A stretch of DNA of 28,524 bases from Vacuolonema iberomarrocanum LEGE 07170. GTDB taxonomy: Bacteria > Cyanobacteriota > Cyanobacteriia > Elainellales > Elainellaceae. This document shows, piece by piece, positions 2,651 through 18,656 of this stretch. The position numbers were made by a program, and so were the translations under genes. The stretch is from NCBI RefSeq assembly GCF_015207365.1, contig NZ_JADEXA010000076.1, forward strand, positions 1-28,524. The letters run 5' to 3'. The first letter of the stretch is position 1, and each line of letters begins with the position of its first letter. The notes beneath the pieces are model-generated. The model was not told the DNA's origin. It worked only from the letters and a program-made list of their open reading frames with translations, and did no database searches.

Positions 2651-3160
2651 TTACGCGGCACTCAAGCTGGCAAAAATATCCTGCACAATGCGCTGGGCTT
2701 TTTCATCCAGGCGATTCCAGTCCACATCCCCCGCTTCATCAAGCAAGCTGGTATCGACCTCAACGGCCACATTTTCTCCCTGGCTGAGCAGTGGATGATA
2801 GTTTTTGAAGCAAATTTGATAGCATACCTGCCATAAGTCCACCGTGACAGCGTTGCTGCCCTCTTTTTCTAGGCACAGGAAATAGCCCGGCATCGGTTGG
2901 GGCAAACTTGAAAGCGCTTCTTCCAGGCCGTTTGCTTCTTCAGGGGCAGCGGTTTTTAGTTGCGCTTGTAGCGTTTCGATGCGCTCCCGCAGTTCTCCCG
3001 GAATCTCCTCTGGCCAAACTACCTCCTCCTGGTAGCTTCCTTCCCAGGGCGATCGCTCCAGTTCCTTACGAATATTGTCAATCAATCGAATGAAGACGGG
3101 CTGCATCAAGATTTCTGCCTGTCTCCATGCGGTGGGATCGGAAATTTGGGGGCGAGCCAT
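2651..3160 (-). CDS. hypothetical protein (acidic, soluble; family not recognised)
   Basis: Clean 169-aa ORF with an ATG start preceded by AAGGAAG. Codon composition is host-like. No motif I can name. Confidence 0.6.
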   Translation of the reverse strand: MARPQISDPTAWRQAEILMQPVFIRLIDNIRKELERSPWEGSYQEEVVWPEEIPGELRERIETLQAQLKTAAPEEANGLEEALSSLPQPMPGYFLCLEKEGSNAVTVDLWQVCYQICFKNYHPLLSQGENVAVEVDTSLLDEAGDVDWNRLDEKAQRIVQDIFASLSAA

Positions 3161-3334
3161 AGCTTCCTTTCATCATCTGCGACACAGCATCCTCCTAATG
3201 TCTATCATCTCCACCTTGCCGGTTGAAACGCAGCTCGCGATTTGACACCAAAGTTAATCCCAGTCGCTCGTCTGAAAAAAGGGAATGATTTTGGTTTTGG
3301 GTTATGCAGACAGCATCCGCACAACCCAAACTCA

Positions 3335-7564: not shown

Positions 7565-7864
7565 ATGAATACCAAAGAGCTTTGTAGCCGTTATGCAGCC
7601 GGTCAAAGGGATTTTAGAAACCTGAATCTGATTGCAGCAAACTTGAGAAACCTCAATCTAAGTGGTGCAAACTTCAGTGGATCTAACTTGACCAAAGCGA
7701 ATCTCACCCGAACCAATCTAAGCCGTGCTAATTTGACTGGGGCTGTATTAGCAGGAGCAAATCTGACCGAAACAAACTTGCTTCAAGCTAATCTAACCAA
7801 CGCAGATTTGAGCGAAACGAATCTGGCCGATGCTCGTACTAAAGGTGTTCGGCAAGCAGGTTAG
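7565..7864 (+). CDS. pentapeptide repeat protein
   Basis: Continuous A(D/N)LxX repeats: NLSGANFSGSNLTKANLTRTNLSRANLTGAVLAGANLTETNLLQANLTNADLSETNL. Confidence 0.85.
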   Translation: MNTKELCSRYAAGQRDFRNLNLIAANLRNLNLSGANFSGSNLTKANLTRTNLSRANLTGAVLAGANLTETNLLQANLTNADLSETNLADARTKGVRQAG

Positions 7865-13214: not shown

Positions 13215-13547
13215 GGCAGAGGCGATCGCAGGGCTAAATCACACGGTATTTCCTGCGAACGTCAGCATTTTCGGCGATCGCACCGATTCAGGCAAGTTCC
13301 CAAAGGGAGGATTGTGTTTGGAGGTGTTCGTTCGTAGGCTGGGCATGCCCAACGCTCTCAATCTCTGCAACGCTTCAGAGGCTCAGAGCTGCGACTTCTT
13401 GACCTCTCGCAAAAGATAGTGTGCTTCGCTTGGGAAAGAAGTCGCAGATCTTTCTCAAGCGAAGACCCCGATTTTTGGCTGTCGGTGAGATAGAACAGAG
13501 AAATAATCATCACTCCCCAGTTTTTGTCCGCTTTGGAGGCTGTGTTT

Positions 13548-14033
13548 ATGAGCGACCTGATTGACATTGAGAAATCTATTACTCGTTTGAAGCGTCAGCT
13601 ATCGGACAAAAGAAACACTCTGGTAACTATCGCACCAGAAGAGAAAGAACGGATTCGACAGCAAATCGAAGATCTACACGAAGAGATTCAGAGATTTGAG
13701 CAGGAAAAATGGGAGATTTTAGCAGAGCAGTCAGAATCCCTGGATTTTCCTGAGCCGGAAGCCGAAACAGCGGTGGTCGAAATTGTGGAAGCGGTCGCCC
13801 AACTTGAGACACAGCCTGTCGCATATCCCGAGGAAGTGATGCAAATCCTGTGGGAAATCCGCGACAAGCTCAACGAACCGGGGCCGACCGCTGCCGGAAA
13901 GCTCAAAGGCATTCTATCCAGCTTTCCACCGTTTGTCGGCATCACGTATGAAGCTGAACTGGATACCGAGAACTTTGCCCGCCAATACTTTCCGACGTTT
14001 ACAAAACTGATTAAGGGGGCGGCAAAAAAGTAA
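13548..14033 (+). CDS. hypothetical 161-aa protein: charged coiled-coil N-half, hydrophobic/aromatic Lys-tailed C-end; candidate partner of the downstream STAND NTPase
   Basis: ATG at 13548 is preceded by GGAGG (13535-13539). The ORF-track start at 13524 is TTG. The stop is 14 nt before the NB-ARC gene ATG on the same strand. No family recognised. Confidence 0.6.
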   Translation: MSDLIDIEKSITRLKRQLSDKRNTLVTIAPEEKERIRQQIEDLHEEIQRFEQEKWEILAEQSESLDFPEPEAETAVVEIVEAVAQLETQPVAYPEEVMQILWEIRDKLNEPGPTAAGKLKGILSSFPPFVGITYEAELDTENFARQYFPTFTKLIKGAAKK

Positions 14034-14047
14034 ATGCCCCTGGTTCG

Positions 14048-17000
14048 ATGGGGTCGGAACAGGGGCTGAACTATGGGCTGAATGCACTGGGAACGACGCT
14101 GTTTGTTGGACGGCGATCGGAGCTGGATGTCTTGCATCAGAAGCTGATAGGGAGCGGGGGCGATACTCAACAGGTTGCCATTGCTGCCGCAGCGGGGATG
14201 GGTGGCGTTGGCAAAACGGCCTTGGCACGCGCTTATGTGCGAGAACAGGCAACGGGCTATCCCGGTGGCATTTGGTGGCTTCGGGTGCGCGAGGTAGATC
14301 TGGTGTCAGAAATTTTGGCGGCGGCAGCATTTTTTGGCTGGGAGGTGCCCGACTTACCCATTGATGACCCAGAGCGAAAGCAAGTTCAGCAAGTGGCCTG
14401 GTGCTGGCAGCAGTGGCAAGATGCTGCACCGGGAAATCGATTGCTGGTGCTGGATGATGTACCGGACTACAGCACAATACAACCCTTCTTGCCGGGAGAT
14501 GCTTCCTTTCGGGTGTTGCTGACCTCAAGAAGGAGATTCAGTCAACCTGTAGATCAAATAGATCTGAGAGTAATGAAGCGAGCAGAAGCATTCCGCACCT
14601 TCCGTCGATATGTGAATGATGATGAGCGAATTCGAGTAGACGTAATAACGGCAAAAGCTATTCTGAACTGGCTAGGCTATTTACCACTGGGTATCGAGCT
14701 AATAGGAAAATATCTAGAGGCTCGCCCCAGTGTATCACTAGTAATTCTGTGGCAACGACTCCAAGAAAAGCGTTTGGATGCAAAAGCTCTGAAGGAGCTA
14801 CCTGAGGAACAGGCTTACGAATATGATATTCGGGCGGCTTTGGAACTTAGTTGGCAAGAGCTTTCGCCTTTGGCGCAACAGGTAGCAGGACTTCTCTCCA
14901 TCTTTGCTCTAGCACCAATTCAACAAGACTGGATCCTGTATGCCCTTAAGGATTTTAGACAGCCTCTAAACAAGGCATTCGCCAAATTAGTCTCAACGTT
15001 CAATCCTTTTCGGAAGCGAGGTACTCCTAATCTCATACTTAATATCACTTTAGAAGAGTTGGAAAATGTCCTGGACAAGGAACTAGTACAAGGTTCAATG
15101 GTGCAACGCTTGGAACCAGGTCGCTATCAATTGCATCAACTGGTGCAAGAATTCTTAGCGGATCACCTAAAAACTAAACTAGCTATCCACACCAAGGTCT
15201 TGCAACTAGGTGTTGTAAATGCTGTGGCTCAACAAGCTAAAATCATCCCTTCCTCCCCCACTTTAGCTGACTTGACTTATCTGCAAGATTTTATTCCACA
15301 CGCCACTACCATTGCCCACAAACTTATCCATTTATCACCCAATAATGCTGGATGGTTATTGACAAGTTTAGCAGCATTATCACAGCTACAAAACCGTTGG
15401 GACGAGGCTGAACACTGGCACAAGAAGTGGCTTAGCATGGCTGAGTTTCGTTTTGGCTCTAGTCATCCCGAAGTAGCTAATAGCTTAGATAATTTAGCTC
15501 TTTTTTATCAGACAGTAGGACGCTACGATGAAGCAGAATCCCTATATAAAAGAGCTCTTAATATCTACCAGAAATATTTAAGATCCAATAGTTCGGACAT
15601 TACTAGCAAACTTAATAATCTAGCATTACTTTACAACAACCTAGCATTACTTTATTGGAGGATGGAGCGATATGATGAGGCAGAATTCCTTTATCATGAA
15701 TCACTCGCTCTTAGGGAGGGTCAGATAGAAATAGATCATGACAATATTATTACTACCTTTAGTAATCTAGCAGTTCTTTACCGAGCAATGAAACGCTACG
15801 AAGAGTCAGAAAAACTGTGTAAAGAAGTGCTACTAGAAAGAGAACAACATCTTGGATCTGATCATCCCGCGGTTGCCACTAGTTTAAATAATCTAGCATT
15901 GTTATACGAAAAGATGGAGCGCTATGAGGAGGCTGAATCATTATACAAGCGAGCTTTCACTATTCAGAATCATCATATGGGGGATGATCATCCTGAAACT
16001 GCCAATATTCTATATAATTTAGCAAACCTTTATTACGAAATGAAGCACTATGAGAAGGCGGAGCAACTGTTTTGTCAAGTACTTCAAATTTATGAAACTC
16101 AATTTGGTGACGCTTATCCCCTGGTTGAAGAGTTATTATCGCCATTAATACTAGCTTGCTTAGAAAATCAGCAATATGATAGTGCTGAAGCTTTCTTATT
16201 AAAATTGATCCAGCTTAGAAGCGATAAATTAGGTAACAGTCATTCTGAAACATTAGCTACTCGTAGGTCTTTAGCAGCCTTGTACCGCTCAGTCAAGCGT
16301 TACAGGGAATCTGAAGCCTTATATTTAGATTTACTTCAGATTTACAATATTCAACTTGATGCTGATCCTTTCAACGCTGCGACGATCCTCAATGATTTGT
16401 CTGAGCTCTACATAGTGATGGAACGCTATTCTGAAGCAGAACATCTCTTAAAAAAACTGCTTCAGATTCGAGAGAGTCAATTAGGTAACGAGCATCTTGA
16501 TATAGCTGATTGTCTTAATAAGTTAGGTTATCTGTATACTTTGATTGGATATTATGAAGAAGCAGAGTCCTTGTATCTAAGAGTACTTCAGATTAGAAAT
16601 GCCTCTCTGGGAAGTACTCATCAGCTTACTGCTGACAGCTCGAATGACCTGGCATATCTTTATAAATCAATGGGACGTTATTCTGAAGCAGAGTTTTTGT
16701 ATCAGGAGGCGCTTAGGGTTTCAGAAAGCAATTTTGGGGCTGATAGTCTCGAAATTATTCTAAATTTGAATAACTTAGCAATGCTTTTGGAATCGATGGA
16801 ACGATATGAGAAAGCAAAAACACTAACTGAAAGAATACTTTATATTCAAACATTGCACTTGAGTGGTGATCACTCTGAGACTATAGATACTCTCTTTGAT
16901 TTGGCAAGCCTTCACAAATCAATGCAGCAATATAATGAAGCAGAATCATTGCTGCTGCAAGCTGTTCAGCTCTTAGAGAAAAATCTGGATTTTAGTCACC

Positions 17001-17260
17001 CTGATTTTGTCACAGCTCTAAACAATTTGGCGGTGTTATATGAATTAACGCAACGTTACGAAGAATCTGAAAAATTTTATTTACGTGCTCTCGATATTGA
17101 TTTGACTAGTTCACCTCAAGATTGTCCTAACACTAACTCTATCCATGAAAGGTTGAGTCGGATGATACAGACTGCACTAGAAGCAGGGGAAGCAGAACAA
17201 TTGTCTGATAATTCGACCACTCAGGAAGTGTTGCGGCAGCTAAGAGAGCATTCAGATTAA
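14048..17260 (+). CDS. STAND NTPase: NB-ARC domain with about 14 kinesin-light-chain-type TPR repeats and no N-terminal effector domain
   Basis: FVGRRSEL, Walker A AAGMGGVGKTALA (about aa 50), Walker B RLLVLDDV, LLTSRRR, and GLPL-like GYLPLGIELIG. These are followed by 42-aa repeats with recurring xRY(D/E/S)EAExLY ... LNNLA(L/V)LY. Confidence 0.9.
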   Translation: MGSEQGLNYGLNALGTTLFVGRRSELDVLHQKLIGSGGDTQQVAIAAAAGMGGVGKTALARAYVREQATGYPGGIWWLRVREVDLVSEILAAAAFFGWEVPDLPIDDPERKQVQQVAWCWQQWQDAAPGNRLLVLDDVPDYSTIQPFLPGDASFRVLLTSRRRFSQPVDQIDLRVMKRAEAFRTFRRYVNDDERIRVDVITAKAILNWLGYLPLGIELIGKYLEARPSVSLVILWQRLQEKRLDAKALKELPEEQAYEYDIRAALELSWQELSPLAQQVAGLLSIFALAPIQQDWILYALKDFRQPLNKAFAKLVSTFNPFRKRGTPNLILNITLEELENVLDKELVQGSMVQRLEPGRYQLHQLVQEFLADHLKTKLAIHTKVLQLGVVNAVAQQAKIIPSSPTLADLTYLQDFIPHATTIAHKLIHLSPNNAGWLLTSLAALSQLQNRWDEAEHWHKKWLSMAEFRFGSSHPEVANSLDNLALFYQTVGRYDEAESLYKRALNIYQKYLRSNSSDITSKLNNLALLYNNLALLYWRMERYDEAEFLYHESLALREGQIEIDHDNIITTFSNLAVLYRAMKRYEESEKLCKEVLLEREQHLGSDHPAVATSLNNLALLYEKMERYEEAESLYKRAFTIQNHHMGDDHPETANILYNLANLYYEMKHYEKAEQLFCQVLQIYETQFGDAYPLVEELLSPLILACLENQQYDSAEAFLLKLIQLRSDKLGNSHSETLATRRSLAALYRSVKRYRESEALYLDLLQIYNIQLDADPFNAATILNDLSELYIVMERYSEAEHLLKKLLQIRESQLGNEHLDIADCLNKLGYLYTLIGYYEEAESLYLRVLQIRNASLGSTHQLTADSSNDLAYLYKSMGRYSEAEFLYQEALRVSESNFGADSLEIILNLNNLAMLLESMERYEKAKTLTERILYIQTLHLSGDHSETIDTLFDLASLHKSMQQYNEAESLLLQAVQLLEKNLDFSHPDFVTALNNLAVLYELTQRYEESEKFYLRALDIDLTSSPQDCPNTNSIHERLSRMIQTALEAGEAEQLSDNSTTQEVLRQLREHSD
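15614..15655 (+). repeat. in-frame tandem 21-nt duplication inside a TPR unit (NNLALLY-NNLALLY)
   Basis: AATAATCTAGCATTACTTTAC / AACAACCTAGCATTACTTTAT, read directly. Confidence 0.85.
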
Positions 17261-17530
17261 ATGAGATTTTTCAGATGGAATGAGCAGATAGAGGTTTGTG
17301 AGCATGAAATGAGAAGCATTTGAGCAGAAAAGCTGGATAGGGAAGTGAATATACCCCTGCAAGAGTAAGGTTGTTATCCAATCAATGCTTGCTCGCCCTA
17401 CGGTTCAAGATGATTTGTATGTTACGGCGGATCTTCTTGCAGATTTCGTAGGTGTGGGCACTTTTGATCGTCTGGTGCGGGCGATCGACTTGGGCGAATG
17501 GTGCCTGCGAATGAATTGTGAGCTGGTGTG

Positions 17531-18175
17531 AGCCAATCTGTTGAAATGGGTTGATGCCTCAGGGCACCTACCCGCCCGCGAATGAATGGCGGGCTAATGG
17601 GAGGAAACCCATTGAAATGGGTTCAGCCCCAGACACCAATGCGGGCAGAGAACCCAGTCCACGACAGTGGACTTAATGCGGTAGCCCGCCATTCATTCGC
17701 GGGCGATTCCCACGGATGACAGCGGGCGAATAGGAGCAAAGCCATTGAAATAGGTCGATTGTTCGAGGCACACCCCCGCCCGCGAATGAAATTGCGGGCT
17801 AATGGGAGAAAACCCATTTCAATGGGTTCATGCTGCAAACACCAATGCTGTCAGAAGCCCAGTCCACGACAGTGGACTTGATGCGGTAGCCCGCCATTGA
17901 TTCGCGGGCGATTCTCACGGATGGCGGCGGGCTAGTGTGAGCAAAGCCATTGAAATAGGTCGATTGTTCGAGGCACACCCCCGCCCGCGAATGAAATTGC
18001 GGGCTAATGGGAGAAAACCCATTGAAATGGGTTCATGCTGCAAACACCAACGCTGGCAGAGACCCAGTCCACGGCAGTGGACTTAATGCGGTAGCCCGCC
18101 ATTCATTCGCGGGCGATCTCGACGGATGGTAGCAGGCGATGGAAGCAAATCCATTAAAACGGGTTCATCCCAGCA
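17531..18175. repeat. tandem array (about 3.1 copies, period 204-205 bp) of REPIN-like units, each with two inverted REP hairpins and two further hairpins
   Basis: Forward REP GCCCGCGAATGAA(T/ATT)GGCGGGCTA at 17574, 17778 and 17983. Inverted REP (G)TAGCCCGCCATT(C/G)ATTCGCGGGC at 17682, 17887 and 18092. Inter-REP hairpins include AACCCAT-tgaa-ATGGGTT (17606-17623) and AGTCCAC-gaca-GTGGACT (17656-17673). The flanking copies are degenerate. Confidence 0.8.
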
Positions 18176-18191
18176 AGCATTCATCGGTCGA

Positions 18192-18656
18192 TTAATGGGG
18201 TTTACGCGGAATGTTGAAGAATTGAGGTTCCAGCCCACGAATTAGGGTTTGGGTGTCATGGTGGTGTTTTTGGTTTTCCACATAGGCGATCGCATCTGGC
18301 AATTGTTTCCGGCCTAATGAGAACACCCCATATTCTCGTTGCCATGCGAAGGTTTGGTCTGGGAAGGTTTTATTCAGATGGCGGGAGCTGCTGCCTTTGA
18401 TGCGTTTGACGAATTGAGCGATCGCCAGTTTGGGCGGAATGGACACAATCAGGTGAACATGATCCTCAATCCCCCCAATTGCATGAAACCAACAATCCAA
18501 GGATTTCGCTTTGGCCTGCATGTATTGGTAGAGTTCAGGGCGGATGGGGTCGGTGATTAGGGGAGTGCGATCGCCCGTCGCCCACACCAGATGATAGTAG
18601 GTCTGCCAAGTTGACATTACGCGTGCTTCCTGTGGTTCTTTCTGCAAGATGCCCAT
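18192..18656 (-). CDS. IS200/IS605-family Y1 (HUH) transposase, RAYT-like (REP-associated tyrosine transposase)
   Basis: YHLVWATGDRTP, HUH motif in DHVHLIVS, Tyr region WQREYGVFS, and YVENQKHHH. No tnpB partner. The 3' end sits 17 nt from the REP array. Alternative ATG at 18617. Confidence 0.85.
   Translation of the reverse strand: MGILQKEPQEARVMSTWQTYYHLVWATGDRTPLITDPIRPELYQYMQAKAKSLDCWFHAIGGIEDHVHLIVSIPPKLAIAQFVKRIKGSSSRHLNKTFPDQTFAWQREYGVFSLGRKQLPDAIAYVENQKHHHDTQTLIRGLEPQFFNIPRKPH

Follow-up and report, generated by a model that had tools for sequence, protein, structure and literature searches.

A 28,524-bp contig from the draft genome of Vacuolonema iberomarrocanum LEGE 07170, a filamentous cyanobacterium that we place in the family Oculatellaceae, was analyzed over its full length (hereafter the window). 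It carries tnpA, a gene for a small HUH/Y1 transposase-like enzyme, which is followed by a tandem array of hairpin-forming repeats built around a repetitive extragenic palindrome (REP). A previous reading of this DNA, made from the sequence alone, had proposed that the locus pairs a REP-associated tyrosine transposase (RAYT) with tandem REPINs, in which two inverted REPs form a long hairpin. Our follow-up analysis retains most of the anatomy described in that sequence-only reading, and assigns the enzyme to a different lineage.

Tandem Repeats Finder (TRF) detects a strong array at positions 17571-18159 with a period of 205, 2.9 copies and 88% matches, in keeping with the roughly three units of 204-205 bp noted earlier. 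A repeat search of the window extends the region to approximately 17503-18175 when weaker copies of sub-elements are counted. The sequence TAGCCCGCCATTCATTCGCGGGC occurs four times in the window at no more than one mismatch, always within the array, whereas 100 shuffles yield no match; two additional forward REP copies carry a 10-nt loop (Table 1). The REP loop reads GAATGAAT. Likewise, the 23- to 24-nt palindromes with inverted partners about 85 nt away are as originally described: the arms at 17573-17596 and 17682-17705 are complementary at 24 of 24 positions and are separated by 85 nt. Every unit also contains the two conserved 7-bp hairpins of the sequence-only reading, AACCCATTGAAATGGGTT and AGTCCAC-N4-GTGGACT, and the pair lying between inverted REPs consists of AGTCCAC-N4-GTGGACT and AACCCAT-TGAA-ATGGGTT. 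When a 206-nt unit is folded as single-stranded DNA (ssDNA), the two REPs pair with each other and the two inner hairpins branch off, with folding energies of -44.5 and -47 kcal/mol and z-scores of -4.1 and -4.5. This fold upholds the REPIN architecture that had been claimed. The cyanobacterial palindrome HIP1 (GCGATCGC), present at 44 sites in the window, is found three times in tnpA and is absent from the array, also as reported.

Other details require revision. GTAG stands 5′ of the plus-strand REP copies and, for the forward copies, TTAG occupies the 5′ position when the opposite strand is read, just as described, but these tags do not amount to a GTAG signature, given that the repeat family as a whole carries NTAG (see below). 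The distance between gene and array, previously given as 17 nt, is approximately 26 nt when measured from the tnpA stop codon to the last recognizable repeat element (18148-18165). Finally, the description of the array is correct but slightly incomplete, in that each 205-bp period includes a third, partial module comprising a degenerate AACCCAT-type hairpin and half a REP. There are therefore about 1.5 doublets per period. Read in the direction of tnpA transcription, the order is stop codon, B0, doublet 1, B1, doublet 2, B2, doublet 3 and B3, where B0 through B3 are the partial or degenerate modules.

Table 1. Features of the tnpA locus in the window. For REP hairpins, the remarks also give the strand on which TAGCCCGCCATTCATTCGCGGGC matches, where it does so at one mismatch or fewer.
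Feature	Position	Strand	Remarks
tnpA	18192-18617	minus	141-aa HUH/Y1 enzyme; motifs DHVH, WQ and YVENQKHHH; annotated start M14
Whole repeat region	17503-18175		three 204-205-bp periods plus terminal partial module; TRF, repeat families D1-D5
Partial module B0, tnpA stop codon to doublet 1	18127-18167		degenerate hairpin AATCCATTAAAACGGGTT (18148-18165) plus half REP GCCTGC (minus strand); family D1
REP hairpin, doublet 1, nearest tnpA	18092-18114	minus	minus strand: GCCCGC-GAATGAATG-GCGGGC-TA; match on plus strand
Second hairpin AGTCCAC-N4-GTGGACT, doublet 1	18066-18083		covariation seen in module alignment
Second hairpin AACCCAT-TGAA-ATGGGTT, doublet 1	18016-18033
REP hairpin, inverted partner, doublet 1	17983-18006	plus	10-nt loop: GCCCGC-GAATGAAATT-GCGGGC-TA
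Partial module B1, linker between doublets 1 and 2	17923-17963		GCGGGCTA plus degenerate hairpin (17944-17961)
REP hairpin, doublet 2	17887-17909	minus	match on plus strand
AGTCCAC hairpin, doublet 2	17861-17878
AACCCAT hairpin, doublet 2	17811-17828		loop flipped to TTCA
REP hairpin, inverted partner, doublet 2	17778-17801	plus	10-nt loop
Partial module B2, linker between doublets 2 and 3	17718-17758
REP hairpin, doublet 3	17682-17704	minus	match on plus strand
AGTCCAC hairpin, doublet 3	17656-17673
AACCCAT hairpin, doublet 3	17606-17623
REP hairpin, inverted partner, doublet 3	17574-17596	plus	24 of 24 positions complementary to 17682-17705; match on minus strand
Terminal module B3	17503-17554		degenerate but complete REP GCCTGCGAATGAATTGTGAGCT (17503-17524) plus degenerate hairpin (17535-17552); inverted pairs, family D1

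The units in the window are 84-88% identical to one another and 77-80% identical to the two units of a close relative, the metagenome-assembled genome (MAG) J06638_22. Thus, the arrays have expanded or been homogenized separately in each lineage, which points to growth by local tandem duplication. Tandem REP clusters correspond to the clusters in Escherichia coli known as bacterial interspersed mosaic elements (BIMEs), and the most fitting description of the array is that of a local BIME-like cluster comprising three REPIN-like doublets. A segment homologous to B0 is present in both J06638_22 contigs (L024 and L218). At the opposite end, B3 is probably a remnant of the original module 3′ of tnpA, judging from the arrangement in Egbenema locus L205, where tnpA is followed by one hairpin and an inverted REP. 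In the window, L024 and L040, half-REPs adjoin full REPs. In Rivularia (L078, 2655-2700), three tandem copies of the REP's 5′ half, GCCCGCGAATGA, lie downstream of tnpA ahead of one complete REP. Such junctions hint at breakage and joining inside or beside the REP, although they prove nothing about a role for the enzyme, and the repeated half-REP of L078 may be a footprint of repeated events of this kind within the REP loop.

The protein of 154 aa described in the sequence-only reading corresponds to the longest open reading frame (ORF) at the gene, which spans 18192-18656 on the minus strand and matches the Pfam family Y1_Tnp (6.6e-30). Position 18656 was rejected as the true start because the 13-aa N-terminal extension that reaches it is poorly conserved, with 4 of 13 residues changed in L218, whose body is at least 90% identical. 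GenBank annotates the start at 18617. In agreement with the earlier description, no tnpB-sized ORF is found near tnpA among the ORFs of the window. In an alignment with 27 homologues, the HUH histidines H53 and H55 are invariant, as are W92, Q93, Y112 and H120, with Q116 and H119 nearly so. The C-terminal LEP motif is also present, and its E130 is invariant.

By sequence, this enzyme is not a RAYT, because it passes the NCBIfam IS200 equivalog model (transpos_IS200; 89.7 bits, cutoff 55), fails the NCBIfam REP_Tyr_transpos model (29.7 bits, cutoff 80), and carries the tyrosine motif YVENQKHHH, which conforms to Y---Q--HH rather than to the Y---NP of RAYTs (PMC6006769). Its matches in the PDB are classical IS200/IS605 TnpAs alone (2f4f, 6e-11; IS608, 2a6m, 1e-9; ISDra2, 2xm3, 4e-8), and the E. 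coli RAYT is not among them at E values up to 1. In the published classification of these enzymes, RAYTs proper form TnpAY1 class 2, marked by Y---NP, while TnpAY1 subclass 1.2 is characterized by DH[IV]H, WQ and Y---Q--HH motifs, a length of about 148 aa, occurrence in Cyanobacteria and Bacteroidetes, and a mean copy number of 1.7 (Quentin, Siguier, Chandler and Fichant, 2018, BMC Genomics 19:475; PMC6006769). When compared with Table 1 and the text of that paper, the window enzyme fits subclass 1.2 by its motifs, approximate length, low copy number and taxon. Like that subclass (~140-150 aa), it is near IS200 and yet is not like an insertion sequence (IS).

What sets these loci apart from the published description of subclass 1.2 is that every cyanobacterial locus examined here has hairpin modules beside the gene. 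We inspected 12 tnpA loci, including the window, that encode homologues with 59-100% protein identity. In 12 of 12, tnpA is adjoined by a bipartite module composed of the REP hairpin, TA, approximately 8 nt, and a second hairpin. Eight loci carry modules on both sides in inverted orientation (L001, L009, L207, L205, L078, L206, L208 and L217), and four carry them on one side: downstream in the window, L024/L218 and L040, and upstream in L216. The simplest form is that of Egbenema L205 (69% identity), where a REP with an AGTCCAC hairpin precedes tnpA and an AACCCAT hairpin with an inverted REP follows it. Because loci such as this one bear a module on each flank, the gene-less doublet equals the two gene flanks minus the gene. 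More elaborate arrangements include L001, L009, L207 and L078, where modules flank the gene on both sides and additional doublets or modules without the gene are present, and L040, in which two tandem tnpA paralogues are followed by reiterated modules. In J06638_22 (96% identity across 47 compared residues at the C terminus), two tandem units lie downstream, where the window has three. Among homologues of about 60% identity, the first-hairpin stems are altered, while the GAAT-N-AAT core and the second hairpin are retained. Specifically, the first hairpin is GCCGC-GATTGAAAT-GCGGC in Leptolyngbya 7M, GGAATAGAATTCC in L. iicbica and CAGGGAATAGAATTCCCTG in Nostoc, and Stenomitos has 53-nt arms that are 98% complementary and include GGAATGAATTCC. 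The matches listed in a metagenome scan with the TnpA alignment are mostly distant relatives (35-62% identity) from non-cyanobacterial samples, and a GCCCGC-type REP stands beside the gene in 0 of the 26 best-scoring loci screened.

The repeat family is not confined to tnpA loci. Scanning one genome per species with the 23-nt pattern GCCCGCNAATNAATNGCGGGCTA recovers at least 115 blocks, and among the matches listed nearly all are cyanobacterial. An Elainellaceae MAG contributes at least 35 blocks, Oculatellaceae Prado106, from the family of the source organism, at least 18, and a Prochloron chromosome at least nine. The pattern is also present on at least four contigs of J06638_22 and in at least four blocks or contigs of Leptolyngbya AN02str. 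The sequence-only reading had asked whether the REP reaches beyond its own locus, and in these relatives it does. Only 3 of the 115 blocks among the matches listed carry a tnpA homologue, and this ratio of one gene to many repeats is expected of a RAYT-like system. The pattern also matches a few non-cyanobacteria, usually as a single perfect palindrome: Flavobacteriia isolates (L011, L109 and L119), a Bacteroides MAG (L063), and Anaerolineales MAGs (L014 and L084). These matches may represent related elements, misbinned contigs, or terminator-like hairpins that fit the pattern by chance.

An alignment of 123 modules reveals how the element is constrained. The TA is fixed by the search pattern, and the REP stem and loop are near-invariant, in part because the modules were found by the REP pattern. 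The tag is TTAG in 65 modules (53%), GTAG in 30 (24%), ATAG in 15 and CTAG in 11. The second hairpin lies outside the search pattern and shows double, compensatory changes at 7 of 7 pairs, with 133 double-change cells, whereas shuffling gives 52.9 +/- 11.2 and none of 500 shuffles attains that count. This signal collapses when the partners are slid. Modules are also strongly extragenic, with 9% lying in long open frames versus 74% for background (p ~2e-53).

Structural constraint and extragenic location would also be anticipated if the modules were mainly host elements that act as RNA or DNA structures, such as mRNA 3′-end stabilizers, attenuators or small RNAs. The array would then be a series of tandem structured transcripts, the alternative offered in the sequence-only reading, and its adjacency to tnpA a historical accident. 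It does lie between convergent genes, where REPs of other bacteria act on mRNA (PMC3733652). However, Rfam returns nothing at gathering thresholds, with chance-level matches alone at E values up to 10, and no promoter-like or terminator-like site is present in the array. Moreover, the length of the spacer between the inner hairpins differs from locus to locus (about 20 to 115 nt) and conservation is confined to the terminal modules, a pattern more in line with mobile DNA recognized at its ends than with a conserved RNA gene. Each element is also a doublet with two-fold symmetry, and an association with tnpA that recurs over 59-100% protein identity is hard to call an accident. We consider a host-element origin improbable.

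Is tnpA simply the transposase of an IS? The expectation for an IS, several near-identical copies per genome, is not borne out in three closed genomes of relatives or, for the source, in the 90%-identity protein cluster. In each of the closed genomes, the exact protein sequence of the homologue occurs at one place (Egbenema, 7.5 Mb; Leptolyngbya 7M, 7.0 Mb; L. iicbica, 5.8 Mb), and the cluster holds one contig of the source assembly, a partial copy in J06638_22 and one Logan contig. The check on copies proposed with the sequence-only reading thus favors a single-copy, conserved gene. The upstream neighbor, an MR_MLE enolase-family gene, is kept beside tnpA in a strain at ~91% nucleotide identity. 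Relative to this strain (L214), tnpA has 10 nucleotide changes in 240 nt, all 10 at third codon positions and none altering an amino acid, and relative to J06638_22 (L024) it has 16 changes in 144 nt with two amino-acid changes. The gene is under purifying selection. Together, the single copy, the kept neighbor and the nearly exclusive synonymous change indicate a host-maintained gene rather than a multicopy IS.

In the same related strain (L214/L215; Logan SRR8163613 and ERR15843843; 91% nucleotide identity), tnpA is truncated to 89 aa. Its positions 1581-1850 correspond to 18415-18656 of the window, and similarity breaks exactly at a HIP1 site in the LAIA codons. Beyond the break, unrelated DNA and an FG-GAP/Calx-beta gene stand in place of the array and the neighboring tetratricopeptide repeat (TPR) gene. 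The break is a rearrangement breakpoint at HIP1.

These data can be set against the proposal that the locus is a decaying IS200-type IS, whose doublets are deletion derivatives consisting of the left and right ends without the gene, much like miniature inverted-repeat transposable elements (MITEs) or palindrome-associated transposable elements (PATEs). On this account the window copy lost its left end and the system is purely selfish. The protein does pass the IS200 model and is closest in the PDB to IS200/IS605 TnpAs, doublets do equal gene flanks without the gene (L205 and L001), the flanks of L217 (53 nt, 98% complementary) look recent, L040 has two tandem paralogues, and a relative has a truncated gene. 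Set against this are the copy number of one in each closed genome and one source contig in the cluster, the retained neighbor and the almost entirely synonymous change, as well as the published mean of 1.7 copies for the subclass (PMC6006769). The form of the flanks is also at odds with a decaying IS, in that they are inverted repeats of each other, unlike IS200/IS605 ends. Those ends are two different subterminal hairpins that are not inverted relative to each other and are both read on the same strand, and terminal inverted repeats are lacking. We therefore regard a decaying IS as unlikely, although it is the strongest of the competing accounts.

Some doublets have a second layer of mobility. 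In the Elainellaceae MAG (L015, L017, L031 and L037), the doublet lies at the center of a MITE that has CAGCAATTCTCA as its terminal inverted repeat and is accompanied by 9- to 10-bp target duplications. In Oculatellaceae Prado106 (L018, L100, L116, L042 and L083), it is the core of two different MITE types, one of ~330 bp with the terminal repeat CTGAGATCTTGCACC and TTAA-like flanks, and the other with the terminal repeat GGTGGCGAATTC. In all, at least three distinct MITEs are built around the doublet. One could argue from these copies that doublets are merely passengers or cores of MITEs mobilized by DDE transposases, that their dispersal is independent of the Y1 enzyme, and that the array arose by recombination alone. 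However, the terminal repeats around the same core are unrelated, which is better explained if the doublet inserts into palindromes. Solitary doublets also exist without surrounding terminal repeats (L093, and L001 at 3134-3280), and MITE carriage leaves the modules beside tnpA unexplained. An origin through DDE-mobilized MITEs alone is distinctly doubtful. The MITE structures suggest instead that the doublet entered the palindromes, a plausible behavior for an enzyme that needs ssDNA. REP dimers of Anabaena have been reported as inserted in palindromes or lying within longer palindromic sequences (PMC3733652).

We favor a reading in which tnpA encodes a domesticated, single-copy HUH/Y1 ssDNA endonuclease/transferase belonging to the IS200-related lineage TnpAY1 subclass 1.2. 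Its probable substrate is the bipartite module, in which a REP hairpin (stem GCCCGC; 9-nt loop GAATNAATK) is followed by TA, a spacer of ~8 nt, and a second hairpin of ~7 bp. Two inverted modules would constitute a REPIN-like doublet of ~130 nt, predicted to fold as ssDNA into a long hairpin with two side branches. The ancestral layout would have placed a module on each side of the gene, as in a REPtron, with gene-less doublets dispersing through the intergenic DNA of many cyanobacteria. In the window, the downstream side alone would have been left, and would have grown, most likely by local tandem duplication, to three doublets with partial-module linkers. We infer that the enzyme binds the REP hairpin on ssDNA, cleaves beside it at or near the conserved TA/NTAG, and moves or maintains doublets.

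Several observations weigh against this proposal. The enzyme falls well below the cutoff of the REP_Tyr_transpos model, and the sole paper describing subclass 1.2 lists it as 'REP: no' (PMC6006769). Both the window and its nearest relative, J06638_22, have modules downstream and no upstream module. Dispersal is seen in relatives, whereas in the 28.5-kb source window the REP motif is confined to the array. The presence of doublets inside MITEs means that part of the copy number in the Elainellaceae MAG and Prado106 probably reflects the activity of DDE transposases and not that of the Y1 enzyme. Lastly, the truncated tnpA of L214/L215 indicates that at least one lineage can do without the gene. 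Considering the evidence on both sides, we estimate a probability of roughly 0.6 that the subclass 1.2 enzyme acts on the bipartite modules. Overall, the interpretation given in the sequence-only reading is partly supported: the locus appears to function in the manner of a REPtron whose repeats are of the REPIN/BIME type, but its enzyme is of class 1 (subclass 1.2, by its motifs) and not a RAYT. More tentatively, and at somewhat less than even odds, subclass 1.2 enzymes may be partnered with a REPIN-like system of independent origin within the IS200 clade in cyanobacteria, one that uses a two-hairpin module, with doublets preferentially entering the single-stranded apex of palindromic MITEs and hitch-hiking on DDE transposition.

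The RAYT, REP, BIME and REPIN systems of E. coli and Pseudomonas, reportedly described by Nunvar in 2010, Bertels and Rainey in 2011, and Ton-Hoang in 2012, offer the closest functional parallel. As in those RAYT (TnpA-REP) systems, the Y1 gene is single-copy, inverted doublets lacking the gene are scattered through extragenic DNA, doublets occur in BIME-like tandem clusters with linkers, and a conserved short tag adjoins the stem. Inverted palindromic repeats on both flanks of the gene, the REPtron layout, are seen at eight of the 12 loci, whereas the window and its closest relative have modules downstream only. The differences lie in the enzyme, which is class 1 (Y---Q--HH) rather than class 2 (Y---NP) and fails the NCBIfam REP_Tyr_transpos model, and in the repeat, which has an NTAG rather than GTAG tag, a covarying second hairpin with each REP, and a short 6-bp REP stem with a 9-nt sequence-conserved loop. 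The IS200/IS605 family and its small derivatives (PATEs, and the Nezha MITE of cyanobacteria) share with this locus a homologous protein (IS200 model; 2f4f, 2a6m and 2xm3), a gene-less element equal to the two ends of the gene-bearing one, and an expected hairpin-based single-strand mechanism. They differ in that the gene studied here is single-copy and position-conserved, has no tnpB, and is flanked by inverted copies of one module.

Within cyanobacteria, the TIRYT/TIRtron elements and the GTAG-12, GTAG-15 and GTAG-16 REP families (Di Nocera et al., 2013; PMC3733652) resemble the present system in having Y1 genes with long inverted flanks (compare L217, 53 nt, 98%), REP dimers within longer palindromes in Anabaena, as here within MITEs, and REP clusters reiterated in tandem along with flanking DNA. 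The transposases of those elements, however, are RAYT-like (class 2). Cyanobacterial RAYT subclasses and REP families have thus been described before (PMC3733652, PMC6006769, PMC5581495), so the novelty does not reside in a cyanobacterial RAYT/REPIN pair as such, where the sequence-only reading had placed it. What is new is that the genes of a subclass described in print as lacking REPs consistently stand next to a bipartite hairpin repeat, itself widespread among cyanobacteria. A literature search for the REP sequence itself found no paper containing it, and the motif is absent from the supplements of Di Nocera et al. (2013), the consensuses in that paper's figures not having been compared.

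In the window, the 5-kb stretch at 13282-18285 lacks HIP1, compared with a window mean of 1.5 sites per kb, and includes a plus-strand gene (14048-17260) for a 1070-aa NB-ARC and TPR (STAND) protein with 42% GC versus 50-55% in its flanks. This HIP1-free NB-ARC/TPR stretch has the appearance of a horizontal acquisition. An NB-ARC/TPR gene also converges on the tnpA-REP locus in L001 (808 aa) and in Egbenema L205 (612 aa), the protein of the latter being 43% identical over 658 aa, and fragments of TPR genes are located close to tnpA in L009 and L207. In two loci, a direct repeat of ~60 nt brackets the whole tnpA-REP module (L001, 4790-4870 and 5738-5795; L009, 4815-4875 and 5755-5820). The bracketing repeat is the 3′ terminus of the TPR coding sequence (...QAEQLSDHPTTQAVLQQLR). 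The TPR protein of the window ends in a homologous peptide, and there is no second copy upstream of the window tnpA. On a speculative note, the repeated occurrence of the locus at the 3′ ends of NB-ARC/TPR (STAND) genes, together with the duplicated gene-end segments in L001 and L009, could reflect gene rearrangement mediated by the enzyme. A second, short tandem repeat in the window (7616-7674; 30-nt period, 2 copies, 82% matches) is unrelated to the array.

The best example of a transposase that no longer copies itself, and maintains a population of short repeats instead, is provided by REPIN/RAYT systems. To our knowledge, all known REPIN/RAYT cases use class 2 enzymes. If the reading favored here is true, then domestication of Y1 transposases happened at least twice, with a class 1 lineage employing a differently built, two-hairpin substrate. 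The 'orphan' subclass 1.2 would gain a candidate substrate that is directly testable with oligonucleotides. The system would also explain a widespread, near-invariant 23-nt repeat of filamentous and symbiotic cyanobacteria, which would matter for the assembly, genotyping and stability of their genomes.

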